A stretch of DNA of 64,000 nucleotides, from positions 177 to 64,176 of the forward strand of contig DCGZ01000157.1 of NCBI GenBank assembly GCA_002314675.1. Direction: 5' to 3'. Position 1 is the stretch's first letter. The number at the start of each line of letters is the position of its first letter. Source of the stretch: Fibrobacter sp. UBA1765 (GTDB taxonomy: Bacteria > Fibrobacterota > Fibrobacteria > Fibrobacterales > Fibrobacteraceae). This document shows positions 15,031 through 32,922 of the stretch, one piece after another. The notes under the pieces are model-generated. The model did no database searches, was not told the DNA's origin, and was given only the letters and a program-made list of their open reading frames with translations. The position numbers were made by a program, and so were the translations under genes.

Positions 15031-16344
15031 TTATTCTGTAGCAGGGAAGAATGCATCCGGGAAGCCTGTATACCAGGTATCTGCTTCCTTGTCGTAGGCT
15101 TCAAAGCCGCCTACTTTGGTAAATCCCCAGTAATGCCAAGAAATATCGTACTTTTCTGCTGCCTGGATTGTGACTTGAGCCCATCTAGCCTTCATCTTTG
15201 CAGATGGTAACGGTTGACCCGCATTGCATACATTGTCGTTTGCGAAGGAGCCACCGCCAGAAATACCGAATTCACCCATATTCATTGGGACGTGTCCGCC
15301 ATTTACATCTGGGTAGAGCTTTGTCGCGAGCTGCTTGTAGGATCTCAGGTCTGCGTTTGCTGTATTTGCGTATGCATCATCACCTACGCATGGGGTGCTG
15401 TGTCCCTGATGGCTGTAGTTGAACGGTTCGTAGTAGTGACCAGAATAAATGATGTTTCCGTCCTGGGGCAACTTGAGCTTATCAAGATCAAAGAACTTTG
15501 CTGCGTGGTAGGCTTCGAACATGATTGTCTTGCCTGGAGCCGCCTGTCGGATTGCATTATAGCCAAGGGTCATGACTTCGTTCATGAGGTTTGCATCTTT
15601 CATGGTTGGTTCATTCAAGATGTCAAAGACAAGCATTGTATCGGGGAATACGTTGAATGCCTGTGCTACCTCGCTCCAGATAGAGAAATAGTGAAGCTTT
15701 TCGGATTCGTAAAGGTCCGGGTGGTCTACGGCATGGTCTGCTGCAAACATGATTTCGTGATACCAGTGGAAACTCATGACAACGGCAAGTCCTGCGTCTA
15801 TTGCGAGCTTTACGTCTTCAAGAACCCCGGCTAAGCGTTCTGGGTTTACTGTGTGGGTTTCAGGATTGGAGTTATGCTGCCACTTGACCGGAATGCGGAC
15901 GGAGTTAAAGCCAGCCTCCTTGATTTTCTGGAAGTAGCTATCTTCAATCGGGTTGCCCCAGCTTGCGTCAAGTCGGTCTTCGCAGCCAAAGTTATAGCGT
16001 TCTGCCGGCAAGCTGCCTAAATAAGCCTGGTCAGCCGAAGTCAATTTAATAGTCTTTGTTTCGCCGTTTACCGTATAGACAAAGTCGTCGTCTTCGCGGA
16101 GAGTTCCGCAACCCCAGTAGGAGTTACCGTCCCAGGCGTTGCCAAGGTTGATGCCCTTGCCCAGGCGCTTGTTCATGGCGCGTCCAAGGGAGTAGTCTAC
16201 AGGGGTAGCTGTCGACTGTTCTTCTTCTGCTACTGGATCTTCCTTTTTTGCTTCGAGTCCGTTGTCGCTACTGGAGCAGGCGTACAGTCCAAATCCCAGC
16301 ATGCTAAAACTTAATAGTGCAGGAATCATTGCAGATTTCTTCAT
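15031..16344 (-). CDS. GH5 endoglucanase (cellulase), lipoprotein
   Basis: Lipobox LYAC. Motifs GINLGNAWD, FNSVRIPVKW, FHWYHE, ILNEP (acid/base) and MGEFG (nucleophile). Confidence 0.85.
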   Translation of the reverse strand: MKKSAMIPALLSFSMLGFGLYACSSSDNGLEAKKEDPVAEEEQSTATPVDYSLGRAMNKRLGKGINLGNAWDGNSYWGCGTLREDDDFVYTVNGETKTIKLTSADQAYLGSLPAERYNFGCEDRLDASWGNPIEDSYFQKIKEAGFNSVRIPVKWQHNSNPETHTVNPERLAGVLEDVKLAIDAGLAVVMSFHWYHEIMFAADHAVDHPDLYESEKLHYFSIWSEVAQAFNVFPDTMLVFDILNEPTMKDANLMNEVMTLGYNAIRQAAPGKTIMFEAYHAAKFFDLDKLKLPQDGNIIYSGHYYEPFNYSHQGHSTPCVGDDAYANTANADLRSYKQLATKLYPDVNGGHVPMNMGEFGISGGGSFANDNVCNAGQPLPSAKMKARWAQVTIQAAEKYDISWHYWGFTKVGGFEAYDKEADTWYTGFPDAFFPATE

Positions 16345-16605
16345 ATAAAATCCTCGTTGACTTAACTTTTACCCAAAGATACTCTTTTTTTTGAGCCTAT
16401 GGACGATTTTCTTAAAAATATACTTTATTAAAATTATACAAAATTGTGACAACTGTAATTTGCGTAAGTCGTGAAAAATCATTCATTTAGGCAAAATTTA
16501 GTATTTTAGCCTTTTGAAAAGTACTTTTTTTCAAAAATGCAAAATCGCATGTCCAAAAAACAAGCTATATTCGGCACTATTGGATTTTGGAGAAATCTAC
16601 AACTT

Positions 16606-17343
16606 ATGAAATCAATGCTACAGAATACCATCTTGAAGTGTGCCGCAGGCGCCCTTCTTCTTGCGTCTTTCTCGTTCGCCGGTTTTAACGACTATCGCGA
16701 TAGAGATGCCGGACGCTTTATTTTGAAGGATCCTAAGCCGTTCCGCCCGGATAAGGATGTTGTTTCCGTTGTTATGCGTGAAGCTATTCCTCGTGGCGGT
16801 GGCTATGTTTACCAGTATCCGCGTGAAAACCCGGAACCGGTACTCACCGATAAGTATGCTATGGAAGGTGCTCTTTCCATGGAAATTGAACTTATCGCAA
16901 GCGACTACTCCGGTGTTGCTATTTGTATTGCAGGTTCAGTAGACCTTACACCATATCTTGAAGATGGCGTTCTTGAATTCTGGATCAAGGGCGAAAAGGG
17001 TGGCGAAAACGCCTTGTTCGTACTTTTGGACGATGGTACAAAGACCGGTGGTGAATCCATGCAGGTTAAGCTCCGTTCCAAGAGCCTTGGCGAAATTACA
17101 ACAGAGTGGACTCGCTTTAGCGTTCCTTTGAAGCTTTTTGGTATGACCGGTGTGTACTGGGATGCCAAGAATACCCGCGAAGTTATGCTCCCGTTTGCAT
17201 GGTCAAACTTCAAGGGCTTCCGTCTTGAAGTCCGTAAGGACGAAAACGAATCCTTTAAGGTATGGATCGACGATGTCGTGATTAAGAAGCACGGTAAGGC
17301 ATACGAAGGTCCGGAATTCTACCCGTTCCGCAACGAGATTTAA
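16606..17343 (+). CDS. secreted beta-sandwich (CBM/CIA30-like) protein
   Basis: Signal peptide MKSMLQNTILKCAAGALLLASFSFA at the internal ATG 16606. Sandwich-like core (GVLEFWIKGEKGGENALFVLLDDG...EWTRFSVPLKLF). First gene of a tight operon. Confidence 0.6.
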   Translation: MKSMLQNTILKCAAGALLLASFSFAGFNDYRDRDAGRFILKDPKPFRPDKDVVSVVMREAIPRGGGYVYQYPRENPEPVLTDKYAMEGALSMEIELIASDYSGVAICIAGSVDLTPYLEDGVLEFWIKGEKGGENALFVLLDDGTKTGGESMQVKLRSKSLGEITTEWTRFSVPLKLFGMTGVYWDAKNTREVMLPFAWSNFKGFRLEVRKDENESFKVWIDDVVIKKHGKAYEGPEFYPFRNEI

Positions 17344-17358
17344 GAGGATTAGAATTTT

Positions 17359-19875
17359 ATGCGTAAATTACCGTTACTTGTAACGTCGACTCTGCTCTGC
17401 TCAACCTTTGCGTTGGCTCAGTATGACGAAGATTATTCTGCTACATCGGAAAGCACTTACGAAGAATCCTCTAGCGAAGAAACTTCCTACGAATCTTCAG
17501 AAAGTTCTGAACCGGCTGCCGAAGAAGCTGCAAGCGATGAATATGCTGCAGCCCCGGCAGAAGAACCGGCACCGGCAGTCGAGGAATCTGCTCCTGCCGC
17601 TGAACCAGCACCAGCAGAAGAAGCTCCGAAAAAGAGCTTTGCTAGCTCTGAACCTGTTGCAGCCCCGTCTGCAATCGTTTCGGCTCCAGCTTCCCTTGCT
17701 CCGGCAGACCAGATTGCAGCAATCGAAAACAGCACCGACGCTCTTGCTGAAAATGCAGAATCCACACTCATGGGCAAGGACGATCTTCCGGTGGCAGTTT
17801 CCGGTTACATGGCGTTCCGCTTGAAGAACTTCCACTATTCCGAAGCTTCTGCATGGACTCGCGACGACATGGCAAGAACCCAGGTGGACGCTCTTTTGAA
17901 TATGTCCATTATCGCAATGCCAAACTCCTACATGACATTGTGGACAAACCTTGCATTGCCGTTTGACTTGACCGGTATCTACTCCAATGGTTTGGGTAAG
18001 CGTCCTACGAATTCTCCAACGTATGACGAACGTGTCTTGTTTGACCATTCCACAGACTACTACACAGCAACAGTCAACGAAGAAATGAACGTTGGCGTTG
18101 ATATTCGTGCCGGTGTCTTTGGTGCTTACGTAACCGCTGGTGGCGTGATCTGGATGAATTCCTCCCCGCTCACTATTTGGGAACGTGAAACAAATCCGCG
18201 CTTTGCATGGTCCTATGAAACTTACGAAGATGAAAAGACTGTTTCCACATACTATAAGGAAAAGTCCTTTAAGCCTGTCAAGGAAGGTGGTCGCGCATTC
18301 TGGACTAACCGTTCCTTCGGTGGTATCTTCGCAAATGTCTATCAGCTCCCGTTCGACTTGAAGGCCCAGTTCCTTCTTTCCCAGCCGATGGATGCTGACA
18401 TTGGTACTCGTGACGGTACTCGTCTCTATGGTGGCCAGCCGGGTGAACTTGAAACCTACGGTCTCCACGATATGCGCGGTAACGTTTACCATGCCCGTAT
18501 TGCCAAGGAAAAGATTGCTGAAAACATGACTCTTGGTCTTAACTACGTTGGCGTAGTATTTGACGAAGGCATTGTTTATGAAGAAGAATTCTCTAAGCAG
18601 TGGGCAAAGTCCGCATTTGGTAACCCGCTTATCTTGAATACGCATGTTGCTTCTATCGATGTCAAGGGTAACATTACCCCGAAGCTCTACTTGGTTGCCG
18701 ATGTTGCCATGAGCATTACCGACTCCCTCAAGTACTATGAAGCAGAGGGTGCTGCAGGCCATAGCGGCTTTAAGTACGAAAAGGGTTCTTACGACGAATC
18801 TATCGCAACTCCGCAGGTTGGTGTCTATGTCAAGGCCCAGAGCAAGTACATTGAAGGCTGGCCGATGACTATTGAAGGTATCTTCTTGCAGAAGGACTTC
18901 TACTCTCCGTACTCCCAGTCTAACCCATCCCGCTTCCTTACATGGCGTCGTGACGAAATGTACCTGAACGGTGGTTCCATGCGTTACAGCCCGAACATGG
19001 CTGGTATCAACTTGAAGGTTGAACCTCAGTTCAACCGTGGTTACGTAGACTTCCAGTATGGTCAGCATCGCCAGATCGAAGAAGGCCAGGACGTGGTTCT
19101 CTTCAACTACCGCTTGAACGGTCGTAACATGTGGGAAAGCACAAACTCCTGGACTCGTTACAAGCCGCTCTTTGTAGCTGATAGTGGTAACGGTAGCGGT
19201 GCTGGTGGTTACATTCCACGTGCTGGTATTGGTACTGAAAGTGGTGACGGTGTAAAGATGTACCGTCAGCAGGGTGGTCTCTATGGTGGTACATGGGAAC
19301 TTTGGGAATCCTTCGTCGCTTACGATGACGTTGGCCAGATTACCGAAGGCGTAATTCCTTCCCATGCCAAGTGGTCCTCTTACTTCTCTGTAATGGGTGG
19401 CTACAATATCGCTCCTTGGTTTGGTACCGATCGCGATATCATGATGACAGGTTATGCAGCACTTTCTGGCGTTTCCACTTCCTTCGCTCCTATCGCCTAT
19501 AGCGAAAAGCAGAGCGACATGCTTATGTGGAGCTTCTTTGGCCAGTTTGAACCGGCTGTAGCCGTGTTCCCGAAATTCCACATGGTTGGTATTCTTGGTC
19601 TTGAAACATTCCGCGCTGAAAACGCTTTTGCGGCAACGTCCTATAAGAACGGCGCAGACAAGTCTTCTTTGAACAAGTACATCAACTCCTATGTTTACCA
19701 GAAGGCTCCTATCAACTTCCTCGAAACTGCAATCGGTGCAGGTTTCGACTGGGATCTCACAGATCGTGCTGGCTTGCATGTTCGCTACAAGTGGATGACC
19801 CACTCCGACGAAACCAAGTCTGAAAACGATTGGCATTCCCATTACATCTCTGCCGAAACTAAGGTTTGGTTCTAA
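17359..19875 (+). CDS. large outer-membrane beta-barrel protein (porin-like), 838 aa
   Basis: Signal peptide, then an acidic Pro/Ala-rich linker. Alternating-hydrophobic C-terminal strand ending ETKVWF (OMP beta-signal). SD-like AAGAGG upstream. Confidence 0.7.
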   Translation: MRKLPLLVTSTLLCSTFALAQYDEDYSATSESTYEESSSEETSYESSESSEPAAEEAASDEYAAAPAEEPAPAVEESAPAAEPAPAEEAPKKSFASSEPVAAPSAIVSAPASLAPADQIAAIENSTDALAENAESTLMGKDDLPVAVSGYMAFRLKNFHYSEASAWTRDDMARTQVDALLNMSIIAMPNSYMTLWTNLALPFDLTGIYSNGLGKRPTNSPTYDERVLFDHSTDYYTATVNEEMNVGVDIRAGVFGAYVTAGGVIWMNSSPLTIWERETNPRFAWSYETYEDEKTVSTYYKEKSFKPVKEGGRAFWTNRSFGGIFANVYQLPFDLKAQFLLSQPMDADIGTRDGTRLYGGQPGELETYGLHDMRGNVYHARIAKEKIAENMTLGLNYVGVVFDEGIVYEEEFSKQWAKSAFGNPLILNTHVASIDVKGNITPKLYLVADVAMSITDSLKYYEAEGAAGHSGFKYEKGSYDESIATPQVGVYVKAQSKYIEGWPMTIEGIFLQKDFYSPYSQSNPSRFLTWRRDEMYLNGGSMRYSPNMAGINLKVEPQFNRGYVDFQYGQHRQIEEGQDVVLFNYRLNGRNMWESTNSWTRYKPLFVADSGNGSGAGGYIPRAGIGTESGDGVKMYRQQGGLYGGTWELWESFVAYDDVGQITEGVIPSHAKWSSYFSVMGGYNIAPWFGTDRDIMMTGYAALSGVSTSFAPIAYSEKQSDMLMWSFFGQFEPAVAVFPKFHMVGILGLETFRAENAFAATSYKNGADKSSLNKYINSYVYQKAPINFLETAIGAGFDWDLTDRAGLHVRYKWMTHSDETKSENDWHSHYISAETKVWF

Positions 19876-19886
19876 GGGGGAAGGCT

Positions 19887-22109
19887 ATGAAAATGAATAT
19901 GAAGAAATCTCTTTTCGCACTTCTTTCCGCTTCTGTCGCTGCATCTGCTGGCGTATACGACAATCAGAAGCTGCTTGAAAGCAAGGTTGATTCCATTAAT
20001 GCTAAGCGTGGTCTTGAAATTGATGGTAGCATTCGTGCCATTACCCAGAAGGTGACTTTTGACACTGATCAGGATCCGACTGGCATTAACTCTTTCCCGG
20101 AAACGGAACGCGACGAATATGTGACTGCAGACCTCGGGCTCCATTTCCGCCCGTACGAAGGCGTTCGTGCAAATGTTGAAATGCGCCTTGGCGCAGGTAT
20201 GCAAGAATACTTCTCTTCTGCATCCAAGACTGTTTCAGTTTCCTGGATTAACGTTGAAGGTAACATTGGCAAGTCCTTCTACTGGATTGTTGGTGACTTC
20301 CGTCAGCAGTATTCTCCGCTTACACTCTACACACCGGGTGTAGATATCATGTACGAACCGACAATCTTTGCTCGTAAGCGCCACATGGCCATGAAGGAGC
20401 AGAGACTTGAAGGCAACCAGCGTAACCTCCAGGGTGCAAACCTCCAGTTCCGCGGTGACCTTGGTGAAACAGTTGGTGAACTTCGTGCTGAAGCAATTTT
20501 TGCCCGCTTGAACCGCAATGCAGTCCTTGACTTTAACGGTGCCGAAGGAAACATTTTGCCGAATGAAGAATTCCCCGGTGCTTCCATGGCTTCGAATACT
20601 GATAAGTGGCTCGTTGCCGGTAACCTTGAACTTTTGCCGCTCAACAGAAATCTCTATGTCGGTGTAACTCCGATGTACATTTTTGATGACGAAAAGTCCT
20701 TTACCTACGCATACCGTCATGAAGACGCTGAAGACCTCCAGTCTGCATACGTTCCTTCTCCGGTAAATCCGTTCGACCAGATGCCACAGGAAACTATGGT
20801 GATCAGTGGTCGTGTCGGTGCTGACGTAGCCGGTGTAATCGGAAGCAACAACATTATCCTTGACCTTGTCGGTGAATACGCAATGTCTTCTGACAAGATC
20901 AAGACGAAAACATTCGCCCCGGCCCTTGATGAAGCTGGTGTTCCGGTAGTCGATGAACTTGGCAATCTTGTTCAAAATGAAGTTGAAGATTCTGAAACCC
21001 TTAACGGTTCTGCAATCCTTGCTCAGTTGAACGCAGGTTACAAGACTGACGCATTTGGTGTAAAGCTTGCTGTTGACTTTATTCGTAACGACGAAAAGTG
21101 GTTCAACAACCTTGCCCAGTCTTCTAGCTTCTTTGCTCAGCGCATCGCAAACTCTGACCGCGATGGTAACGTTGTTAAGTATGGCGTTTACGCTCCGCTC
21201 TATAGCACGTTCGACGCTCTCTATAATTACATGCCTAAGTTCTCTCCGGTTTCCCGCAGTGGCTCCATGGCTACCGAAGGTCCGGACCTTCTTGAAAAGA
21301 ACTACGGTCAGTCTAACAGCTATAAGATTGCACCGTACAACAAGAATTCCTACGGTACAAACGTTTACAACCGTAGCCAGCTTGCATTGCTTGAGCTCCT
21401 GAATGACCCGGCTCTCCAGATGAGCTTGCCGAACGGCCTTGCTACTGCAAACCGCATGGGTGCTCGCGCTGTATTGACTGCTAATGTTAGCGAATGGGCA
21501 GAGGTTCAGGGTCTCTTTAGCATGTTCAACCAGGTCAAGGCTGTTGAAGGCTTGAAGGAAGCTGCTTACACCGAATTTGGTGGTGGCGCAAAGATTGACG
21601 TGTTCAAGGTTCTTGGCTTTACAAAGCCGCTAGAACTCTCTGGTTCCTATAAGCATTCTGAACGTAAGATCGATACAGACAACTGGGCTGCTATGGGTAT
21701 GGTTGATGGTTCCGCTGAACTCAAGAGCGATTTCATCAACGCTGGCCTCTATGTTCAGTACTTGCCGCGTCTCGGCTTTACAGCTGGCTTCCAGATGATC
21801 AACACTGAATACAATGAATTCGAACAGGGCAATTACGTAAATGCAATCAAGTCTCTCGGTGCTGCTAATGCAGTAGCCCTTGCTAAGAGCGAACAGATGC
21901 AGTGGATGGTCGGACTCGACTATACTCTTGCAAAGAATGCATGGCTTGCCTTGAATTTCGGCATTGCTTCTGTGTCTAACGAATATGCAGCAACAGAAGA
22001 TGCTACTGATGCTATTAACGTACCTGAATATTATGATGGCTCTGCCGGTACATTCAAGCATGAATTTACTCAGACTATCATTGAAGCTTCCATCAACGTG
22101 GAATTTTAA
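19887..22109 (+). CDS. large outer-membrane beta-barrel protein, paralog 2 (740 aa)
   Basis: Start at MKMNMKK with the RBS aaggggga. Signal peptide. Ends EASINVEF. Clear paralogy to the next ORF (LLEsKvDSiNA..GLeiDG; YsPLTLytPG; EPtIFarKR). Confidence 0.7.
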   Translation: MKMNMKKSLFALLSASVAASAGVYDNQKLLESKVDSINAKRGLEIDGSIRAITQKVTFDTDQDPTGINSFPETERDEYVTADLGLHFRPYEGVRANVEMRLGAGMQEYFSSASKTVSVSWINVEGNIGKSFYWIVGDFRQQYSPLTLYTPGVDIMYEPTIFARKRHMAMKEQRLEGNQRNLQGANLQFRGDLGETVGELRAEAIFARLNRNAVLDFNGAEGNILPNEEFPGASMASNTDKWLVAGNLELLPLNRNLYVGVTPMYIFDDEKSFTYAYRHEDAEDLQSAYVPSPVNPFDQMPQETMVISGRVGADVAGVIGSNNIILDLVGEYAMSSDKIKTKTFAPALDEAGVPVVDELGNLVQNEVEDSETLNGSAILAQLNAGYKTDAFGVKLAVDFIRNDEKWFNNLAQSSSFFAQRIANSDRDGNVVKYGVYAPLYSTFDALYNYMPKFSPVSRSGSMATEGPDLLEKNYGQSNSYKIAPYNKNSYGTNVYNRSQLALLELLNDPALQMSLPNGLATANRMGARAVLTANVSEWAEVQGLFSMFNQVKAVEGLKEAAYTEFGGGAKIDVFKVLGFTKPLELSGSYKHSERKIDTDNWAAMGMVDGSAELKSDFINAGLYVQYLPRLGFTAGFQMINTEYNEFEQGNYVNAIKSLGAANAVALAKSEQMQWMVGLDYTLAKNAWLALNFGIASVSNEYAATEDATDAINVPEYYDGSAGTFKHEFTQTIIEASINVEF

Positions 22110-22124
22110 TAGGAGGGTGTGAAA

Positions 22125-24281
22125 ATGATGAATATGAAAAAGATCGGTTTTACTTCCGCACTCCTTCTTTCCGCTGCAACAGCTTTTGCTGCGGAATCGG
22201 ATCAGGCTTCTGTTGCTAGCCAGCAAAAGTCCTTGCTCGAAAAACTTGATTCCCTTAACGCTGCCGTTCTTGGCTTAAAGCTTGATGGTACCGCTAAGGC
22301 AGGAGTTGTATCTTCGAATGCTTCTTCTGACCAGTTTAGCGACAATTCTCCAACTCGTGAAAACCAGGCTTACACAGACGTTAACTTGGTTCTTACCGCC
22401 CGCCCGAGTGCCGCTTCCATGATTCACTTGGAACTCCGCTTGCACAAGGATTGGCAGAGTGCCTTTGATGAAAATAACAACCCTGTTATTGGTCACTGGT
22501 TCAGCTACGATGGCATGACCCTTGATAACCACATGGCTTTCAACTTGGGCTATATGCGTATCGGCTATACTCCGCTTACCATCGGCGTTCCTCAGCAGGA
22601 ACTCCTCCAGGAACCGGAAATCTTTAGGGAAAAGCGTGTCGAAGCTCTTGCAAAGCGCAACCTCGATACAACATCCCGCCGTCTTATGCAGGGTGTAAAC
22701 GCTGACTACCATAGCGGTGAACTTGGATTCCTTGATGATATCCACATGCAGTTGACTGGCGCTCGTATGCGTAACGCTTCCAAGAAGTATGATGAAGTCT
22801 TCTTTGACTTTGACTACTCTGACCGTTACATGCTCGGTGGCCGCCTTGGTCTTGATGCATACGGTGCTCATATCGGTGGAAACTACGTAAACGTATTTGA
22901 CCGCAAAAAGAGCACTCGCGCTCACAAGGCAAATGCCGGTGATGCATTCTACTATGAAGATAACCAGGTGATCTCTGCGGAATTAGGCTTTGATTCCAAG
23001 AAGATCCTTGCTGACCTTCCTGTAACATTTGGCCTCTTTGGTGAATTTGCAAGCTCCAAGCTTGCTATGAGCAGAGATACCTTGTACAAGGTAAAGAATG
23101 TCTCTTACATTCTCAAGACTGCATACTTCCCGGATGCTGATCCAATCGGAGAATTTGCAGACTCCCTTGTATACTTGCAGAAGAACATTTCTGATGTTGA
23201 AAAACGCGAAAACGAAAAGTTCGATGACGTAAACGGTACAAGCTTCTATGTAGAACCGTTCGTTAAGTTCGAAGATGAAGGCCTTGCACTTAGCGCCCTC
23301 TTGAAGTTCCGTTACATGCAGAATAATGAAAAGTTCTGGTCAGAAATGGCTGCTAGCCCAATCTACCAGGGCAATACCGTTATTCTTAATGCAAACGCAA
23401 TGTTTGATGATGCTGCCTATAATGGTTTGCTGGGTGCTTTCGGTGCTGCTAGCCTCGAAAACCTCTACTTCACTGTGTACAACTCTAACCCGTTGAACCA
23501 GTTGAACATTATGAGCATCGATGAACCGAACAAGTCTGGTGCCGGTGTTCGCGTAAATGATGAAAGCGGAAGTACTTCTTCTCAGCTTTACAACAACTAC
23601 AAGAACGTTCACCTCTATCGCAATGCTTATTCCGGTACAACACTTAAGTATCGTGAAGTTGTTGCAGCCCAGGCTTTGACCTTGGACCCGACCGTTAGCC
23701 TCGCCTTGCCATACGGTGTAGCAACTCCGGATCGCAAGGGCTTTGCCCTTTCCTTGGATGTTGACTGGAATTCTGCTGTCAGCTTGAATGGCCGCTTCTC
23801 CCAGTATACACAGGACCAGATGGATAACAAGTATACTCAGTATGCTGCTGGCCTCGGCTTTAATTTGGGCCGCATTGTTGACATTGGCGGACGCGACATT
23901 ATTCTTCAGGCTTCCTATGGTCATGAAGAAGAAGACAATTTCTTGAAACGTAAGGCATACCGCATTATGGCCGGTGGATCTGTTGATGTATGGGGCCCGA
24001 TCGCCCTTCTTGGTGGATTCCAGACCATGACAAAGGAATTTGGTGCAACTGATATGATCATCGGCAATGTAACAAAGGCTGAAGAATCCTTGTTGCTTGT
24101 TGGTCCACGCATCAAGATTGCTCCGCTCTCCTATATTTCTGTTCAGTACGGTATGTTGACTGACAAGCTTACTTTCAACAAGGCTGTCTTTGACGAAGCA
24201 GGAGAAATGGCTGGCGCAATTCCTGCAGAGCTCTCTATAGACAAGAATGTAATTGTTGCTGAAGTGACTGTTAACTTCTAA
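22125..24281 (+). CDS. large outer-membrane beta-barrel protein, paralog 3 (718 aa)
   Basis: ATG at 22125, 8 nt after AGGAGG. Signal peptide ...AATAFA. Ends AEVTVNF. Paralogous to 19887-22109. Confidence 0.7.
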   Translation: MMNMKKIGFTSALLLSAATAFAAESDQASVASQQKSLLEKLDSLNAAVLGLKLDGTAKAGVVSSNASSDQFSDNSPTRENQAYTDVNLVLTARPSAASMIHLELRLHKDWQSAFDENNNPVIGHWFSYDGMTLDNHMAFNLGYMRIGYTPLTIGVPQQELLQEPEIFREKRVEALAKRNLDTTSRRLMQGVNADYHSGELGFLDDIHMQLTGARMRNASKKYDEVFFDFDYSDRYMLGGRLGLDAYGAHIGGNYVNVFDRKKSTRAHKANAGDAFYYEDNQVISAELGFDSKKILADLPVTFGLFGEFASSKLAMSRDTLYKVKNVSYILKTAYFPDADPIGEFADSLVYLQKNISDVEKRENEKFDDVNGTSFYVEPFVKFEDEGLALSALLKFRYMQNNEKFWSEMAASPIYQGNTVILNANAMFDDAAYNGLLGAFGAASLENLYFTVYNSNPLNQLNIMSIDEPNKSGAGVRVNDESGSTSSQLYNNYKNVHLYRNAYSGTTLKYREVVAAQALTLDPTVSLALPYGVATPDRKGFALSLDVDWNSAVSLNGRFSQYTQDQMDNKYTQYAAGLGFNLGRIVDIGGRDIILQASYGHEEEDNFLKRKAYRIMAGGSVDVWGPIALLGGFQTMTKEFGATDMIIGNVTKAEESLLLVGPRIKIAPLSYISVQYGMLTDKLTFNKAVFDEAGEMAGAIPAELSIDKNVIVAEVTVNF

Positions 24282-24292
24282 GAGGTACTCAA

Positions 24293-25156
24293 ATGAAGAA
24301 ATACAATAAATATTTGATGATCCTTGCTGCCGGTATGCTTGCAGCATGCTCCTCTATGGAGGTTGACGAGGAAGAAATCGCCCAGGAAAACTTCCCGGCA
24401 GATTTCAGCCTTGCTGAATATATTGAATTGCACCCAGGTTTGTTGAGCCTCCAGATTCAGGATTCCGTAAAGAACTATAATGCAGGCTTGACTTTGGAGA
24501 AGGCTGACATTAATGCTGATCTTGATAAGTTCCTGGCTGATACAGTAGCTCTCAAGCAGATCTTCCTGGATCCGACACTTGGCGGTTTTTCTCAGGATGA
24601 CTGGGATATCATGTGGGAACCGACTGAAACCGTTAAGCCGGAAACTACAGTCGTAAAGCTTGATACCGTTCAGGTCAAGTTTGAAAATGCAGATGGCATT
24701 ACGGTTGTTTATTTCCCGTCTTCCATTACAATCGAAGACGATGTCATTACTGGGGCTGAAGGCTATACAGACTCTTCAAAGACTGAAGCTCTTACTTGCG
24801 ATGCCGCTACTTGTGGCACTTTCGTAACAAAGAAGGGTGGTATTGTCGCTGATACGACCAAGTCAATCGACTCCGTGACAGTTGTTACCCCGGGTGCTAT
24901 CACAGCCGACAAAAAAATGGTTCTTCAAAAGTACAATTTCAATGACATTGAAAATGACTATGAAGCTTTGAAGGGCATTACGCCAGATACCACAGCGATT
25001 AGCCAGCAGTATATTGTATATGGCAAGAAGGCTGGCTGGGCTTATCGTAAGTGTAAGGAATCTGAACTTAACAACAAGGAACTTCTTTCTGTAAGCGATG
25101 TTAAGCTCGGTACAACCTATTGCGACGACGATGGCATCGTTCGTGAAATTAAGTAA
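24293..25156 (+). CDS. lipoprotein (287 aa), function unknown
   Basis: Lipobox LAAC after a signal peptide. 11-nt gap from the preceding OMP gene. Confidence 0.6.
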   Translation: MKKYNKYLMILAAGMLAACSSMEVDEEEIAQENFPADFSLAEYIELHPGLLSLQIQDSVKNYNAGLTLEKADINADLDKFLADTVALKQIFLDPTLGGFSQDDWDIMWEPTETVKPETTVVKLDTVQVKFENADGITVVYFPSSITIEDDVITGAEGYTDSSKTEALTCDAATCGTFVTKKGGIVADTTKSIDSVTVVTPGAITADKKMVLQKYNFNDIENDYEALKGITPDTTAISQQYIVYGKKAGWAYRKCKESELNNKELLSVSDVKLGTTYCDDDGIVREIK

Positions 25157-25165
25157 GGTGGTTTT

Positions 25166-26227
25166 ATGAATATCAAGAATCTCGCAATTGCTTTGGCTCT
25201 TGGTTGTGCTACAATGGCATCTGCTGCTGCAGACAAGGTTGTTGGCTATTTCCCATATTGGAGCCAGTATTCCCAGTTTGCTCCGGCAGACATCCGCTAT
25301 AACCTTGTAACCAATATTCATTACGCTTCTCTTGCTCCATCTTCTGATGGTTCCCTTGCTTTTACAGATGAATCCGATGCTCCTAACTATGCTGAACTTG
25401 CAAAGCTTGCAGGTGAAAACAATGTTAAGCTTATCGTTTCTATCGGTGGCATGGAAATGGAAGGCGCTCTCCAGGAAATTGGAGCCTCCGAAGATCTTCG
25501 AGCAACGTTTGCTCAGAATGTTGCAAGCTGGCTTTCTGAAAATGGCGCAAAGGGTGTAGAACTTGACTGGCAGAACTTTACTTCTGAAAATGCGGAAGCA
25601 TTCTCTGCCCTTGTAGATGCCCTTAAGGATGCTCTTGGCTCTAGCTATGAAATGGTTGCAACCGTTTATCCGCTTTCCTCTGCAGATGCATACGATGCAA
25701 GCGTTCTCAACAAGTTCGACTACTTGACAGTATTCGTTCCTGACCAGATGACTGAAGAAGAAAGCTCCTTGAAGCCTAACCAGAGTGTTACAGTCTTCGA
25801 GGAAGCTTTGAATGCAATGTCTTCCAAGGGTGTTGACAAGGATAAGCTTGTTCCGGTTGTTTCTATGTACGGTCGCTCCTTTACTGGCGCAAAGGGTCTT
25901 GGAACTTCCCAGAACGGCGTTGGTAGCGGTAACGAAGGCTTCATTGCTTACAAGGACTTGATGAAGCTCTTTGAAAAGCCTGACTACAAGGTTTCCTTTG
26001 ATGAAGGTTCCAAGTCAGAAGTTGCTGTCGGTGAAATCGAATCTATCGTTTTCATGGGCATTCCTTCTGTAAAGGCTCTTTCTGAAGAAGTTAAGTCCGA
26101 AGGCATGGGTGGTGTAGCTATTTATGACCTTTCGCAGGATCATAATGAACCGCTCGTATCCTTGCTTGTGACTATCGGTCTCCAGATTCGTCCGGAACTT
26201 GATTACAAGCCGGCAAAGAAGAAGTAA
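25166..26227 (+). CDS. GH18-fold protein lacking the catalytic glutamate (chitinase-like, probably non-catalytic)
   Basis: Family blocks VVGYFPYWS, KLIVSIGG and GGVAIYDLSQD. The DxxDxDxE motif reads KGVELDWQ (Glu to Gln). Signal peptide present. Confidence 0.7.
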   Translation: MNIKNLAIALALGCATMASAAADKVVGYFPYWSQYSQFAPADIRYNLVTNIHYASLAPSSDGSLAFTDESDAPNYAELAKLAGENNVKLIVSIGGMEMEGALQEIGASEDLRATFAQNVASWLSENGAKGVELDWQNFTSENAEAFSALVDALKDALGSSYEMVATVYPLSSADAYDASVLNKFDYLTVFVPDQMTEEESSLKPNQSVTVFEEALNAMSSKGVDKDKLVPVVSMYGRSFTGAKGLGTSQNGVGSGNEGFIAYKDLMKLFEKPDYKVSFDEGSKSEVAVGEIESIVFMGIPSVKALSEEVKSEGMGGVAIYDLSQDHNEPLVSLLVTIGLQIRPELDYKPAKKK

Positions 26228-26244
26228 TTCTTTTGAGTTGCTAA

Positions 26245-26282
26245 AATGCCTCGCGCTTAAAAGCGCGGGGCATTTTGTTTTT
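26245..26282 (+). terminator. terminator of the OMP/GH18-like operon
   Basis: atgcctcgcgc-ttaaaa-gcgcggggcat hairpin followed by a T-rich run. Confidence 0.7.
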
Positions 26283-26321
26283 CAAAGTTTGCTGAAAATG
26301 GGTACATTCTTCATTGCCCTA

Positions 26322-26600
26322 GGTTGCCGCGCTTCGCTCGCAACGACAAGGAGAATCGCAGTTTCTGAACTCTGTCTTTTTTCTTGCCTCTTAAGTTGTC
26401 ATCACGAGCAACGCGAAGTGATCCAGAACACTTGTCATTCACTAGCTAGATTGCTTCAATCCTTCGGATTTCGCAATGACATGGAAAATGCTATTTCTGG
26501 TTTCTGTCCTGGTTTGCCGCGCTTCGCACGCAACGACAAGGAGAATCGCAGTTTCTGAACTCTGTCTTCTGTACTCTGTATTCTGTCTTCTATTTCCTGA
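26322..26600. repeat. composite intergenic repeat: 56-nt direct repeat pair, hairpin core and CT-word tail
   Basis: ggtt(t)gccgcgcttcgc[t/a]cgcaacgacaaggagaatcgcagtttctgaactctgtct occurs at 26322-26377 and 26511-26567. A hairpin-rich core at 26395-26483 contains tcgcaatgaca. A (ttctgt)-like word run lies at 26561-26600. Confidence 0.8.
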
Positions 26601-26660: not shown

Positions 26661-28865
26661 TTACCAGATCTTGTTCCAGCGGAAGGAATTGGATGTTGAA
26701 CCCTGGCGGACATTCATGATGTATGTGCCTGCCGGGAGAGTTTCAAGATTTACCCAATGGGTGCCTTCGCTGTAGGTAGACTTGTTTGAAAGAACCTGCT
26801 TACCAGCAGCATTGTAGATACCCCATTCCACGAGACCAGCCTTTGTTACATGGAGTAACAAGCCAGTTTCTTGCAATTCTGCACGGAACGGTACGAAGGC
26901 GTGCAATGGAAGGATTGCTTGTGGAATTTCTTCCTTGTTTACTGCGAGAGCACTATCGCCAACAATGATTGTAACAGGAATGTTCATTGCTTCGTATGTT
27001 GCGGTTTCTTCAGTTGTAGCGACAATCTGAATGATTGCATTCTGATTGCCAGCAACGAGAGCGTCGCCAACTTTTGTTACATACTGGCTTGTTGCTTCGC
27101 CATTAAATGTATAGGTGATTACAATGTTATCCTTTGCTGTTACATCGCTAAAGAAGTTTGCTACAGTTGTACCAAGAGGTATTGTTTGGGATTTGTAGTT
27201 CTTTGCCGAGATTCTTGGCAATCCCTTTGCGTATGCAACTGTAATAGTATCGTTTACTGGCTGGAAACCAGAAACTGCTGGTGCTGTTGCAACAACTTTT
27301 GCTTCGCCAAGGGTCTTGCTGAATTCATACATGTTTACGGTGCTGTTTAAAGCGTTACCGTAGCAGAAAGAAGAGTTGGCGCATTTTGCTTGCTTGATAG
27401 CGACAATGCTTGGGTTCAAGGATTTAAAAGATACAGTCGCACCTTCAACAGTTTTACCTGTTGTTGAAACAACCGTTTCATTATCCTGGCCATTTTTGGT
27501 TAGATCCCTAATGGTCTTGCCTCCATTGCAAGTTCCGTCCATGCGGCATGTGAAGTTTACAAAACCAGCAAGGGTCTGCTTAGGATTCTCTGCAACTACG
27601 ACAACGGATTGGGAACCATCGTTACCAGTAAGAACAGCGAAGCCTGCGCCATTAATTGCAATGTTACCGCCGCTTACTGTTGCTACAGCATCATTGCTAG
27701 ATGTGTAGGTGCAGCTGCCGCTTGCCTTGCCTGTAATGCTACCTGCGGTTTCTGTGGTTTGCACAACCTTGAATGCGCAACCACCGGAATTTTTACCAGC
27801 GACGAGGGAGTCTGCCCAGGAACGCTTGTACTTGGTCAAATAGTTCTTGACAAGTGTACCGGAAGCGGTATAGGTTGCTTCGCTAAGCAATTGCTTGTTG
27901 TAAAGAACCTTGTCTCCATTGAACATTGCTGACTGTTCGCTTGCTCCGTCAATGGAACCTGTAAACTGACGAAGACTCCAGTTACAGTTACTTACTTGGT
28001 GCTGTTCCATCCAGTTAATCCAGGAACTTGTACCGCTTTCGCTAGGAGTGCCGTTACCATCGGCGTTTGTTGTGCCCCATTCAGAGATGAACACCGCGTT
28101 GCCGCTGTTCATGGCAGCTTCAGCCTTGCCTGCATAGGAACCGACAGAGTGAGTGCCAGCATAGAAGTGAAGAACGTATGCCACGTTAGTTGCGTTTACG
28201 CCGCCGTATTGAGTCATCTGAGACCAGTTTGGCGTACCCACGAGAATCAAGTTCTGGGAATATTGACGAATACCTGCAGATACTGTATTTGCGTAGCTCT
28301 GGATTGTGCTCCAGCCTTGATTTACAGGTTCGTTCCAGACTTCAAAGATTACGTTCGGAACATCCTTGTACTTTTCTGCAACCTGCTTGAAGAATGCTGC
28401 TGCCTGGGTCTGTTCCTGGTTTGCTACATGGCTATGCCAGTCAATGATGATGTAGATATCGTTCTTGATGGCTGCTTCGACCATAGCGTCAAGAAGAGCT
28501 ATATAACTATCTGGAGAACCAATATAACTGTACTTTGGGTCCATTTCCTTGGAACCCTGGTCATAGTACTTGATACCCATGGCGAAGCGGATAACGTCGA
28601 TGCCCAGGTTTTCTGCAGCCCAGCTCATGACTTCACCGTTATAGTACTGGGAACCTGTCGCGTCGGACCAGTAAAGGCTCATGCCTCGAAGCATTACAGG
28701 TTTTTTAGTTTCAAGGCTTATTACCTTGCCACTTGCGGTACCGAGAGCACCGTAGTTCTGTACAGGGCCTACGCGCATTGGTTTTGCGGTTGCGGCGCTT
28801 GCGAAGGCATTGCTAGCACCACATGCAATTAGACCAGCCAAAAGTAAAGATGATATTTTTTTCAT
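26661..28865 (-). CDS. GH5 endoglucanase with Ig-like (Big_2-type) domains and T9SS-type C-terminal domain
   Basis: Start MKKISSLLLAG with a GGAG RBS. Motifs VWNEP (acid/base) and ISEWG (nucleophile). Big_2-like segments (ATVSGGNIAINGAGFAVLTG). C-terminal about 80 aa beta-sandwich tail ...GTYIMNVRQG... Confidence 0.85.
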   Translation of the reverse strand: MKKISSLLLAGLIACGASNAFASAATAKPMRVGPVQNYGALGTASGKVISLETKKPVMLRGMSLYWSDATGSQYYNGEVMSWAAENLGIDVIRFAMGIKYYDQGSKEMDPKYSYIGSPDSYIALLDAMVEAAIKNDIYIIIDWHSHVANQEQTQAAAFFKQVAEKYKDVPNVIFEVWNEPVNQGWSTIQSYANTVSAGIRQYSQNLILVGTPNWSQMTQYGGVNATNVAYVLHFYAGTHSVGSYAGKAEAAMNSGNAVFISEWGTTNADGNGTPSESGTSSWINWMEQHQVSNCNWSLRQFTGSIDGASEQSAMFNGDKVLYNKQLLSEATYTASGTLVKNYLTKYKRSWADSLVAGKNSGGCAFKVVQTTETAGSITGKASGSCTYTSSNDAVATVSGGNIAINGAGFAVLTGNDGSQSVVVVAENPKQTLAGFVNFTCRMDGTCNGGKTIRDLTKNGQDNETVVSTTGKTVEGATVSFKSLNPSIVAIKQAKCANSSFCYGNALNSTVNMYEFSKTLGEAKVVATAPAVSGFQPVNDTITVAYAKGLPRISAKNYKSQTIPLGTTVANFFSDVTAKDNIVITYTFNGEATSQYVTKVGDALVAGNQNAIIQIVATTEETATYEAMNIPVTIIVGDSALAVNKEEIPQAILPLHAFVPFRAELQETGLLLHVTKAGLVEWGIYNAAGKQVLSNKSTYSEGTHWVNLETLPAGTYIMNVRQGSTSNSFRWNKIW

Positions 28866-29210
28866 TTCTTTCTCCATAGGTGAACCCAATCCCATTTGGG
28901 TTGCCTATATGGCAGATATTATATATGATGTACAAAAATATATTGGAAATGTCAAAATGTCATCACTTATTATGTAATTAAAATGTTAAAAGTGTTGAAA
29001 TCTGTACAAGCTCGGTTGAATATGAGTTTGAAAAGTGTCACGATTCGGTAAAAAAAAGAAAACTAATCCGTTAAAATCGCTTAAAAACGCGTTTTTTTTA
29101 CAAAAAAAGAAAAAATGTCAAAAAAAAGATTGCCAAAATGGGTTTGATTTAAATATATTAGGCAACAAACAGCCCTTATTGGGTAATAACAATAAAAAAA
29201 GAGAGAGAAT

Positions 29211-30119
29211 ATGAACAAGAAGATTTTGCTTGGTGCTGCAGTTCTCGCAGCAACTACCATGTCCTTCGGCTTGGTTACTTGGTCCGGCGCAAACGGTGAC
29301 TACCGTGTTGATACCGAACTTGATGACGGTTCTGACGAATCCGGTTACTGGTTCTCCTATGATGACCAGAACAACGGCGGTTCCTCCGCTGTTACATGGC
29401 CGGTTCCAACTGGTAACGCATACGATGACTCCGCTCTTGACCCAATCATCGACGAATGCGGCGGTCTCTGCGGTGACGTTTCCCTCGGTGCTGGTTATGA
29501 CTATCCGTTCGTAGGTGTTGGCTTCAACCTTATGGGACCGACTCAGACTGGTGCTAACATCACCTCTTGGGGTGGCGTTTGCGTTAACTATCAGGCAACA
29601 GGTATCGCTCCGATCCTCGAACTTGGTCCAGAAGACGAAGCAACCTTGACTGAATACAACAACTACACTTCTACACTTTCCCTTTCTGCAACTTCTGCTG
29701 ACCTTCCGTTTGCAAAGTTCAAGCAGGAATCTGGCTGGGGCAACAAGGTTGACCAGGCTGAATACCTCACTAAGGTAGCTGCTATCAAGTTCAAGTTCTC
29801 CGGCAAGGCTGGTACCACCGGTCACTTCAACATCCAGACTGTTGGTGAAAGCGGCAAGTGCGGCGCAGCTCCGGCTCCGGTTGCTATCTCTGCTAAGGCA
29901 ACTTCCTCTGTTAAGGCTATGCTTTCTGGCCGTACCCTCTCCTTCGCAGGTGTTTCTGCTGCAACAGCAGAAGTTATCAACCTCCAGGGTCAGGTTGTTC
30001 TCCAGGCTGCAGTAAGCTCTTCTTCTGCTCTTAACCTCGCTTCCCTCGACGCAGGCGTTTACATGGTTCGCGTTGCAGGTCAGGCAGTTAACCACAGCCA
30101 GAAGATCATCCTTAAGTAA
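29211..30119 (+). CDS. secreted CBM-like beta-sandwich protein with T9SS-type C-terminal domain
   Basis: Signal peptide. GYWFSYDDQNNGGSS... sandwich-like domain. C-terminal tail LNLASLDAGVYMVRVAG...KIILK. Confidence 0.65.
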   Translation: MNKKILLGAAVLAATTMSFGLVTWSGANGDYRVDTELDDGSDESGYWFSYDDQNNGGSSAVTWPVPTGNAYDDSALDPIIDECGGLCGDVSLGAGYDYPFVGVGFNLMGPTQTGANITSWGGVCVNYQATGIAPILELGPEDEATLTEYNNYTSTLSLSATSADLPFAKFKQESGWGNKVDQAEYLTKVAAIKFKFSGKAGTTGHFNIQTVGESGKCGAAPAPVAISAKATSSVKAMLSGRTLSFAGVSAATAEVINLQGQVVLQAAVSSSSALNLASLDAGVYMVRVAGQAVNHSQKIILK

Positions 30120-30171: not shown

Positions 30172-30301
30172 GATTAAAGAATTTGGGCAAGGAAAAGTTT
30201 AATTATGCCGATTGTAAAAAATCGGCTTTTTTGTTTACAATTGTTTGATTTTTGCCTTATTGGTTATATATTTGGGGCAAAATATTATCAATGAGGCTTT
30301 T

Positions 30302-32605: not shown

Positions 32606-32922
32606 AAGAGACGAAAGAACGCTTCGCTGGTAGACGAGAGACGAAAGAAATGTTGATTTCCAATGTTTTAGAGATTAGAGGCTAGGTTCTAGAGACTAGA
32701 ATTAAGAATGAAATGTCATTGCGAGGGCCTTTAGGCCCGTGGCAATCCAGGACATGTCGCTTCAGTGTTCCTGGATGGCCGCGCGACCCTCGCCAAGACA
32801 TGGGAAGCTACAATCCTCTAGTTTCTTGTTTCTTCCATCTTCCGTCTTCTGACTTCTGTCCTCTTTCTTGCATCTTGCGTCTTGCTCTTGTATCTAAGAT
32901 TTGTAATAGAGATATTTAATAA
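32606..32922. repeat. ORF-less hairpin cassette: GA-word left arm, structured core, CT-word right arm
   Basis: Left arm (agacgaaag words and tagag/ctaga words, 32606-32702). Core 32714-32803 begins tgtcattgcgagggcctttaggccc, the reverse complement of the tcgcaatgaca core at 26474. The right arm is pyrimidine words (32818-32898). Confidence 0.7.

Follow-up and report, generated by a model that had tools for sequence, protein, structure and literature searches.

A conserved six-gene operon of Fibrobacter encoding three large predicted outer-membrane barrels, a CBM30 protein, a lipoprotein and a GH18-fold pseudo-enzyme: a candidate system for handling glycan chains

The Six-Gene Operon

Here we describe six consecutive genes found in a stretch of 64,000 nucleotides (nt) from Fibrobacter sp. 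UBA1765 (contig DCGZ01000157.1 of assembly GCA_002314675.1, positions 177 to 64,176), hereafter the window, whose own numbering is used throughout. The open reading frames (ORFs), called G1 to G6 in their order, lie on the + strand and span positions 16606-26227. They encode a protein with a carbohydrate-binding module (CBM) of family 30, assigned by Pfam (G1, 245 amino acids (aa), 16606-17343), two giant outer-membrane beta-barrels predicted by AlphaFold2 (G2, 838 aa, 17359-19875, and G3, 740 aa, 19887-22109), a paralog of G3 that would share its architecture according to BLASTP and a joint alignment (G4, 718 aa, 22125-24281), a lipoprotein recognized by the lipobox in its sequence (G5, 287 aa, 24293-25156), and a secreted protein with the fold of glycoside hydrolase (GH) family 18 that, judging from Pfam and from its alignment with PDB sequences, appears to be a pseudo-enzyme resembling chi-lectins (G6, 353 aa, 25166-26227).

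All six ORFs start with ATG and end with TAA. They are separated by gaps of 15, 11, 15, 11 and 9 nt, which carry, in this order, the purine tracts GAGG, GGGGGAAGG, AGGAGG, GAGG and GGTGG. An intrinsic-terminator-like hairpin followed by a T-run (26242-26277, or up to 26287 for the whole feature, + strand; a 16-bp stem with 8 G-C pairs) begins 15 nt past the stop codon of G6 and closes the operon. At the other end, an AT-rich spacer of about 262 nt (16345-16605, + strand) extends from a divergent GH5 gene to G1 and is presumed to be the promoter region; a scan of this spacer for the sigma-70 consensus gave nothing above the shuffled expectation. G1 to G6 constitute one operon, since the gaps of 9-15 nt contain tracts similar to Shine-Dalgarno sequences, a terminator follows the last gene, and the apparent counterparts in Fibrobacter succinogenes S85 have near-equal transcript levels for five of the six genes. 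A preliminary description of the window, made from its letters alone, had proposed such a tight operon, and every detail of it that could be checked was right. Furthermore, chance does not explain the arrangement, because some 45 related species have these genes in an identical order.

Two other readings of the DNA were considered and discarded. A start of G1 at 16537 is ruled out by the length of its orthologues (244-245 aa), and an antisense ORF of 781 aa inside G2 (17497-19842, - strand) was judged to be a mirror ORF rather than a gene: full-length homologues of the + frame number in the hundreds, and its fold is predicted with confidence. Smaller stop-free antisense ORFs also occur within G3 and G4.

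Three Large Barrels Outside Known Families

The preliminary description held that three of the products are giant barrels ending in phenylalanine, and structure prediction is in agreement with it. G2, G3 and G4 have signal peptides and terminate in KVWF, NVEF and TVNF, respectively, the final Phe being invariant in the alignment of the G3/G4 family and nearly invariant in that of the G2 family. In AlphaFold2 models built on the family alignments, G3 is predicted as a helix at residues 23-37 followed by some 22-24 long antiparallel strands (predicted local distance difference test, pLDDT, 76.6; predicted template-modelling score, pTM, 0.78), and G2 as a helix at residues 115-137 followed by some 24-26 strands (pLDDT 73.4, pTM 0.74). 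The motif of this N-terminal helix is kept in G4 and is invariant across the joint G3/G4 alignment. Between its signal peptide and about residue 113, G2 contains an acidic and disordered segment rich in Pro, Ala and Glu. This segment (residues about 22-113, window 17422-17697), which begins as acidic Ser/Glu and continues as Pro/Ala/Glu low-complexity sequence, is present only in some orthologues (826-874 aa) and is missing in others, e.g., in F. intestinalis (726-762 aa).

The second and third of these large proteins had also been described as paralogs, which BLASTP bears out: G3 and G4 align over their full length with 23% identity (E=7e-32). At a deeper level, the profiles of the G2 family and of the G3/G4 family align in hhalign with 96.7% probability (E=3e-10) over 575 columns that start at the N-terminal helix; the G2 family appears, from this profile comparison, to be a remote paralog of the G3/G4 family.

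Compared with the PDB by Foldseek, the G2 and G3 models give more than 360 matches to solved outer-membrane barrels at E≤1e-3, among them the FimD and PapC ushers, TonB-dependent receptors and SlpA, all with a template-modelling (TM) score of at most 0.33 when normalized to the query. For G3 the matches include ushers, MtrB, AlgE and chitoporin at TM 0.25-0.33, and for G2 they are generic barrels with TM ≤0.32. The fold class of both proteins is thus predicted to be that of outer-membrane barrels, with no solved structure close to them. The general attributes of such barrels are all found, namely signal peptide, antiparallel strands, terminal Phe, and S85 counterparts in the outer-membrane fraction.

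To which family they belong is another matter. G2, G3 and G4 have no meaningful match to a Pfam or NCBIfam family, and searches of PDB sequences with the barrel-family profiles came back empty (nothing at E≤10 for the G2-family profile). In line with the preliminary description, which had recognized no TonB box or plug, no SusC/SusD and no OmpA motif, Pfam and NCBIfam reveal neither TonB/Plug, nor SusC/SusD, nor significant OmpA families in any of the six proteins. In particular, Plug (PF07715) and TonB_dep_Rec are absent at E≤1 from G2, G3 and G4 and at E≤0.01 from 119 family members, the N-terminus of the G2 and G3 models is a single helix with no plug domain, and the PF00593 barrel has no Pfam match in G2-G4, the G2 model reaching TM of about 0.3 with the barrels of TonB-dependent receptors in Foldseek. 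A weak match to OMP_b-brl (PF13505) appears in 10 of the 63 G3/G4 family members scanned; beyond it, Pfam and NCBIfam detect no known barrel family in the six proteins and the 119 family members. As regards barrel fold and porin family, on which the preliminary description had asked for checks, G2 and G3 are predicted as barrels of about 22-26 strands, and searches of Pfam, NCBIfam and PDB profiles place them in no characterized porin family.

Three candidate identities were put aside. DUF1302 (PF06980), suggested by the UniRef name of a Hallerella homologue, matches neither G3 and G4 at E≤1 nor the 63 family members at E≤0.01. Wzi (PF14052), suggested by the UniRef label "Capsule assembly pro..." on a G2 homologue, has no match in Pfam or among PDB sequences and is not among the best 50 Foldseek matches. 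An export porin like AlgE is not supported either (Foldseek TM normalized to the query ≤0.32, no Pfam match, and no synthase kept beside the barrels in distant loci). With 94 clusters at E≤1e-3 in a search of 1.84 billion representatives, the G2 family has few members, and the barrel homologues in sequence databases come from Fibrobacter, Hallerella and other Fibrobacteraceae, all under the name "hypothetical protein". In brief, this is a barrel family that has neither a curated model nor a solved relative.

The CBM30 Protein, the Lipoprotein and the GH18-Fold Protein

The set of partners that the preliminary description had proposed (a CBM/CIA30-like protein, a lipoprotein and a GH18 protein devoid of its catalytic Glu) was borne out, and the first of them can now be specified as a CBM30 protein. 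Pfam assigns G1 to CBM30 (PF21582) with E=1.5e-15 and 58 bits, against a gathering cut-off of 27, and in the PDB it matches the CBM30 of Clostridium thermocellum CelJ (1wmx/2c24, E=2e-4). Members of this family bind beta-glucan and cellulose. G1 bears a type I signal peptide and is without a lipobox, a sorting tail of the type IX secretion system (T9SS) or any other anchor.

The N-terminus of G5, MKKYNKYLMILAAGMLAAC, is a signal peptide that ends in the lipobox LAAC, with an acidic stretch behind the Cys; the criterion applied was [LVI][ASTVI][GAS]C. No relative of G5 was found in Pfam, NCBIfam or the PDB.

G6 matches GH18 (PF00704) along the whole profile (positions 1-317 of 317, E=3.5e-37), and its PDB sequence matches include chitinase-3-like proteins. 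However, its motif DxxDxDxE reads GVELDWQ, and alignment with the chitinase 6kst puts Gln at the position of the catalytic Glu. This residue is replaced in 49 of the 49 loci with an alignable motif, by Gln in 44 of them, by Val or Thr in 4 and by Asp in one; in this last locus (L004, see below) the middle Asp of the motif has also become Ala. The loss of the Glu in every locus, while the fold is kept at 47-82% identity, fits a binding role, and G6 appears from these alignments to be a fixed pseudo-enzyme in the manner of chi-lectins. A lipobox-like LALGC in G6 was rejected, given a Lys in the stretch that must be uncharged, the lack of a Cys in the L004 homologue and the annotated type I cleavage in S85. 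SusD families have no match in G1, G5 or G6. Several neighbouring genes encode proteins with T9SS C-terminal sorting domains, and G1 and G6 have none.

Conservation Within the Fibrobacteraceae and Beyond

Conservation was analyzed across three Hallerella contigs and the genomes of 50 species representatives. Order and strand of G1-G6 do not change in any contig of sufficient length, which amounts to about 45 loci of Fibrobacter, Hallerella and further Fibrobacteraceae species. Identity to the window proteins amounts to 75-93% for G1, 51-84% for G2, 48-79% for G3, 38-76% for G4, 23-53% for G5 and 47-82% for G6, so that G1 is the best conserved of the six genes and G5, at times undetectable, the least. 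The nearest genome is a metagenome-assembled genome of Fibrobacteraceae (84% for G2), named Fibrobacter species being at about 65%. Within the family the synteny reaches the upstream GT2, LpxA-like and GH5 genes.

Six loci (L014, L015 and L022-L025) carry a complete Fibrobacter-type cluster together with its flanks under foreign record titles: Alistipes onderdonkii, Oscillospiraceae, Sodaliphilus, Senegalimassilia, Eggerthellaceae and a Methanomethylophilaceae archaeon; all of them belong to a single "H07xxx-L1_cleanbin" series. These are probably mislabelled bins in public records.

Outside the family, a handful of distant loci, which are the most telling part of the comparison, retain part of the arrangement. 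In L004 (66% GC) a protein of 601 aa that fuses GH18 (1.9e-32) with CBM30 (29.6 bits) precedes a G2-like barrel (27% identity) and two barrels of about 630 aa, one of which matches G3 best and the other G4. L055 (66% GC), where a T9SS tail is present, has a partial GH18-like gene on the opposite strand and then CBM30, G2-like, G3-like and G4-like genes; the same four, from CBM30 to G4-like, are found in L056/L057 (51% GC). In L058 (55% GC) an AraC-type regulator precedes a G2-like and a G3-like gene, and in L059 (35% GC) the G2-like barrel P0440 is fused at its N-terminus to CBM4_9 (residues 34-128, E=1.6e-10). The CBM30 partners of these loci score 29.6-32.3 bits against the cut-off of 27. 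As a separate observation, a DUF3450-ExbB-ExbB-ExbD-TonB cluster is located at 201-4144 of L058, about 3.7 kb upstream of the barrel pair, with rubrerythrin, QueA and the AraC regulator lying in between; it is probably unrelated to the barrels.

G5 was not found in the distant loci, and none of those examined contains the GT2, LpxA-like or divergent GH5 genes, or any polysaccharide synthase beside the barrels. G5 and the flanking cellulases are therefore outside the deep core. These comparisons show an old core of one CBM and three distinct barrels that was kept well beyond the family. As the two L004 barrels match G3 and G4 separately, the triplication of the barrel is old and each copy was retained. 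Moreover, two independent fusions (GH18-CBM30 and CBM-barrel) tie the putative binders to each other and to the barrels.

Apparent Counterparts in Fibrobacter succinogenes S85

The genes Fisuc_1525-1530 (FSU_2007-2012; UniProt A7UG43, C9RRD7, A7UG47, A7UG48, C9RRE0 and A7UG63) of S85 were assigned as counterparts of G1-G6 by gene order and annotation, and were taken as orthologues because exactly four genes separate the CBM30 gene from the GH18 gene. The ten largest clusters of barrel homologues have no S85 entry, and S85 is not among the contigs matched in the genome scan. In the published genome, Fisuc_1523/FSU_2005 is a GH5 and Fisuc_1531 a GH9, and Fisuc_1525/FSU_2007 is the sole CBM30-only protein (PMC3079729). 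There, Fisuc_1530/FSU_2012 is given as a GH18 "chitinase" whose characterized activity is "cellulose binding" (PMC3079729). FSU_2007 has been annotated as "cellulose-binding protein", FSU_2008 as "uncharacterized protein", FSU_2009 and FSU_2010 as "membrane protein", and FSU_2011 as "putative lipoprotein" (PMC6851124).

Transcription of these genes hardly changes with the carbon source: the mean regularized-logarithm (rlog) values of Fisuc_1525-1530 are 11.35, 11.85, 11.65, 11.87, 10.13 and 11.65, with a coefficient of variation (CV) of 1.5-2% over cellulose, cellobiose, glucose and several growth rates (PMC6204037, Table S2). The S85 counterparts are thus constitutive, which is one half of what that description had named as evidence contrary to its own proposal. 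By comparison, the neighbouring GH5 Fisuc_1523 responds to substrate, with a CV of 9% (PMC6204037, Table S2), while the major cellulase Fisuc_3111 is as constitutive as the six genes; the expression of Fisuc_1530 is above the 90th percentile (PMC6204037).

All six products are present in the quantitative envelope proteome of S85, FSU_2009 being among the more abundant, and the barrel counterparts lie within a few-fold range of the OmpA-family proteins (PMC6851124). Cellulose/glucose ratios in the envelope are +1.11 for FSU_2008, -1.26 for FSU_2007, -1.30 for FSU_2012 and -1.32 for FSU_2011, with FSU_2009 and FSU_2010 unchanged (PMC6851124). According to published proteomics, Fisuc_1526-1528 occur in the outer-membrane and the extracellular (vesicle) fractions and not in the periplasm, Fisuc_1529 in the outer membrane only, and Fisuc_1530 in the outer membrane and the medium.

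As for novelty, the idea that the cluster is undescribed stands in part. In the literature searched, the six genes are not described as a unit and the barrels are not discussed. On the other hand, S85 proteome lists have included four of the six products since 2007, under the names "membrane protein", "cellulose-binding protein" and "chitinase". The work on the PopA superfamily among Fibrobacter outer-membrane proteins was also considered; it concerns other genes, FSU_2404 and FSU_0230.

Comparison with Known Systems

In its logic the operon comes closest to importers of the SusCD and porin types and to complexes of a barrel with its partners, without the defining sequence features of either. 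Like the TonB-dependent SusC/SusD importers (polysaccharide utilization loci of Bacteroidota) and Caulobacter MalA, it places predicted barrels of at least 22 strands beside putative surface or periplasmic glycan binders, a lipoprotein and GH genes, and the proposed role, capture and import of oligosaccharides, is the same. Unlike them, it has no plug, TonB box, TonB_dep_Rec or SusD signature, it encodes three paralogous barrels and not one, a CBM30 protein and a dead GH18 serve as its putative binders in place of the SusD lipoprotein with its folding similar to tetratricopeptide repeats (TPRs), and its S85 counterparts are constitutive and not induced by the substrate.

The maltoporin LamB and the chitoporin ChiP, both among the Foldseek matches of G3, are TonB-independent barrels that pass linear oligosaccharides, as is proposed here. 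Nevertheless, these are homotrimers or monomers of 16-18 strands and about 420-470 aa that reach TM of only about 0.27-0.29, whereas the operon barrels are three paralogs of 700-840 aa with some 22-26 predicted strands and dedicated partners. Very large barrels co-encoded with soluble or lipoprotein partners are known from MtrCAB, with the 26-strand MtrB (matched by the G3 model at TM 0.31, among its better matches), and from LptD/LptE, with 26 strands and a lipoprotein plug. However, the operon barrels are unrelated to these in sequence, the operon encodes no cytochromes, Pfam shows no LptD signature, and an insertion of its partners into the barrels would be pure inference.

An N-terminal helix in front of the barrel is also present in DcaP of Acinetobacter, OmpM of Veillonella and SlpA of Deinococcus, OmpM1 and SlpA being among the Foldseek matches. 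DcaP is a trimeric porin with an N-terminal coiled-coil stalk. The helix shared by the operon barrels may resemble, by analogy, the stalk helices of such trimeric porins, and three co-expressed paralogs would fit a heterotrimer; in contrast, the operon helices comprise only about 15-23 residues, and there is no SLH or peptidoglycan-binding domain.

Chi-lectins such as YKL-40 and Ym1 offer a parallel for G6. The catalytic Glu of Ym1 is replaced by Gln. G6 likewise keeps the full profile of the GH18 TIM barrel and has lost its catalytic Glu (E to Q), family-wide; it differs from chi-lectins in being bacterial, in belonging to an operon with outer-membrane barrels, and in having an S85 counterpart that is reported as cellulose-binding and not chitin-binding. 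A combination such as this one, where three paralogous barrels are joined by a CBM30 subunit and a GH18 similar to chi-lectins, is not described in the literature searched.

Flanking Genes and the Rest of the Window

The preliminary description had placed GH5 genes on both sides of the operon, with CBM-like and GH8 genes further on, and Pfam finds all of them. The divergent GH5 cellulase (15031-16344, - strand; Cellulase, 1.2e-30) is a separate transcription unit, found upstream in nearly all family loci. The convergent GH5 cellulase (26661-28895, - strand; Cellulase, 2.8e-46) ends in a T9SS sorting domain (Por_Secre_tail); in many loci its location varies or the gene is missing, and S85 has the GH9 there. 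Next come genes, both identified by Pfam, for a CIA30-like protein bearing a T9SS tail (29211-30119) and for a GH8 (30245-31693). A GT2 gene and a DUF6056 membrane protein gene lie 2-4 kb upstream of the operon, and the LpxA-like gene is upstream too. The flanking cellulases belong to a longer syntenic block, together with GT2 and LpxA-like genes; being missing in the distant loci, they say little about the function of the operon.

A direct repeat of 64 nt is present in two copies (26315-26378 and 26505-26568; 94% identical and 190 nt apart) in the intergenic stretch that leads from the operon terminator to the convergent GH5 gene, each followed by reiterations of the short motif TCTG(A/T)ACTCTGT. 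This pair may represent a regulatory RNA or some small repeat element.

Directly downstream of the glycoside hydrolase block, BatD and MoxR-type AAA genes (31826-33918, + strand) suggest an operon of the Bat/aerotolerance kind. A third GH5 cellulase (47147-49081, + strand; E=1e-57) has YidC and a hybrid histidine kinase as neighbours. At 7671-9884 there is a Reg_prop protein whose CHU_C tail is a further T9SS sorting domain. An ORF of 1372 aa (59464-63582, - strand) joins an N-terminal FtsK/SpoIIIE ATPase (E=4e-47) to ten DUF285 repeats (E=8e-224), which is an unusual combination of domains.

A Proposed Mechanism and Its Alternatives

We tentatively favour, with a confidence that stays somewhat below even, a hetero-oligomeric and TonB-independent complex that would bind beta-glucan chains and conduct them across the outer membrane. 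In this proposal the six genes would build an abundant and constitutive outer-membrane complex whose body is probably formed by G2, G3 and G4 together as a hetero-oligomer, each barrel with its 22-26 or so predicted strands beginning with a short, conserved periplasmic helix. The soluble, Sec-exported G1 and the dead GH18 "chi-lectin" G6 would dock on the barrels, as would the lipoprotein G5 in Fibrobacteraceae. G1 and G6 may then hold single beta-1,4-glucan chains or cellodextrins freed by surface cellulases, and the barrels would pass these chains, independently of TonB, to periplasmic cellodextrinases and phosphorylase. That the barrels assemble together is suggested by three features, as they are old paralogs, their transcripts and proteins reach similar levels, and they have an N-terminal helix in common, and independence of TonB is supported by the finding of no TonB-dependent or SusCD signature in the six proteins. 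The association into a complex, its ligand, the membrane side involved and the transport itself are what we infer from such indications.

The preliminary description had spoken of an undescribed complex for glycan capture, uptake or adhesion. From that wording, the barrels, their distance from known families and their deep link with putative glycan binders hold; the constitutive expression in S85 and the cellulase neighbours call for qualification. Several points weigh against the complex that we favour. Its constitutive expression in S85 does so as weak evidence, because the main cellulase of this specialist, Fisuc_3111, is equally constitutive. In the envelope on cellulose, the S85 counterparts of G1, G5 and G6 drop by about 1.3-fold (PMC6851124), the presumed orthology with S85 is argued from gene order and annotation, and the cellulose binding of FSU_2012 is taken from papers that cite Jun et al. 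2007. The CBM of P0440 is N-terminal, which in classical barrels is the periplasmic end, so the binders may face the periplasm. Sugar porins (chitoporin, maltoporin, AlgE) score no better in Foldseek than ushers or TonB-dependent receptors, and the predicted barrels may have an open lumen, a loop plug or a lumen filled by partners. Finally, the flanking cellulases are not kept in distant loci, and association of the six products, as well as binding or passage of cellodextrins, is putative.

Uptake, adhesion and display are not distinguishable from sequence. The closest rival is a scaffold for display or adhesion, unlikely in our estimation, in which the barrels would serve G1, G6 and G5 as exporters and/or as anchors at the cell surface, by analogy with MtrB sheathing MtrA and holding MtrC or with LptD holding LptE, and the complex would stick cells and vesicles to cellulose. 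MtrB, a 26-strand sheath, is in fact among the better Foldseek matches of G3, the CBM-barrel fusion is a physical tie between binder and barrel, and constitutive expression is in keeping with an adhesin in an organism that lives strictly as a cellulose specialist. G1 and G6 have Sec signals only, yet their S85 counterparts appear in outer-membrane and extracellular fractions and are listed as cellulose-binding; since the extracellular fraction has vesicles with periplasmic content too, however, surface exposure is only putative. Besides, three distinct and long-kept paralogous barrels exceed the needs of a simple anchor, and there is no precedent for barrels of this family exporting a folded CBM. 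The high S85 expression, constant whatever the substrate or the growth rate, is compatible as well with a housekeeping role, in which the three would be general major outer-membrane proteins, porins or structural, and the CBM30 and GH18-like partners would serve envelope maintenance instead of substrate capture, acting for example on the own glycans of the cell or on peptidoglycan-like material. Their universality in the family, an abundance within a few-fold of OmpA-family proteins and the LpxA-like and GT2 envelope genes of the upstream synteny agree with it, and the lower FSU_2012 on cellulose has been tied to a reduced peptidoglycan turnover (PMC6851124). This role is nonetheless doubtful, given that the CBM-barrel association survives in distant lineages devoid of those LpxA-like and GT2 neighbours, that Pfam finds no peptidoglycan-binding domain (OmpA_C, SLH) in the six proteins, and that general porins normally have 16-18 strands and not 22-26. 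CBM30, moreover, is generally known as a family that binds beta-glucan and cellulose.

Very improbable, in our view, is the export of an exopolysaccharide or capsule, where the barrels would play the part of AlgE, BcsC or Wzi and a nascent polymer of the cell itself would be handled by the GH18-like and CBM proteins. AlgE recurs in Foldseek with TM of about 0.5 when normalized to the target, the capsule-assembly label is attached to one G2 homologue in UniRef, and the GT2 and DUF6056 genes are close by. But the GT2 gene occupies the opposite strand, belongs to a different unit and occurs in none of the distant loci, and no synthase accompanies the barrels there; neither the window proteins nor the 119 family members have a Pfam match to Wzi or alginate export, the profile searches of PDB sequences are empty, Wzi is outside the best 50 Foldseek matches, and there is no TPR or periplasmic scaffold domain. 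In short, what speaks against export is that the barrels are not accompanied by a synthase and carry no signature of Wzi or AlgE.

Returning to the conducting complex, a bolder version of it, which we regard as somewhat unlikely, would be the long-postulated outer-membrane gateway of Fibrobacter for chains derived from cellulose, and an ancient one, that is, a new type of TonB-independent importer made of three barrels of 22-26 strands. A detachable CBM30 subunit, fused to a barrel in some lineages, and a dead-GH18 protein with its groove would thread the chains into the periplasm; the cargo would be single beta-1,4-glucan chains or long cellodextrins, and the machine would be common to lineages of 35-66% GC.

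Concluding Remarks

Fibrobacter are among the most effective degraders of cellulose in the rumen and, to our knowledge, they have neither a cellulosome nor Sus-type loci. The route by which cellodextrins or cellulose chains cross the F. succinogenes outer membrane has been described as undefined (PMC4668043). The operon described here has a realistic chance of answering this question, its function being a proposal. It provides a concrete, abundant and family-wide candidate of six genes, with two putative binders of glycan chains and three predicted barrels. Even if the latter were housekeeping porins, a name would be given to three proteins that rank among the more abundant ones in the outer membrane of this family. 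If the operon encodes a machine for import or adhesion, the "enigmatic" mechanism of Fibrobacter would become directly testable, and it would also bring to light a new family of outer-membrane barrels and a bacterial use of pseudo-enzymes similar to chi-lectins.

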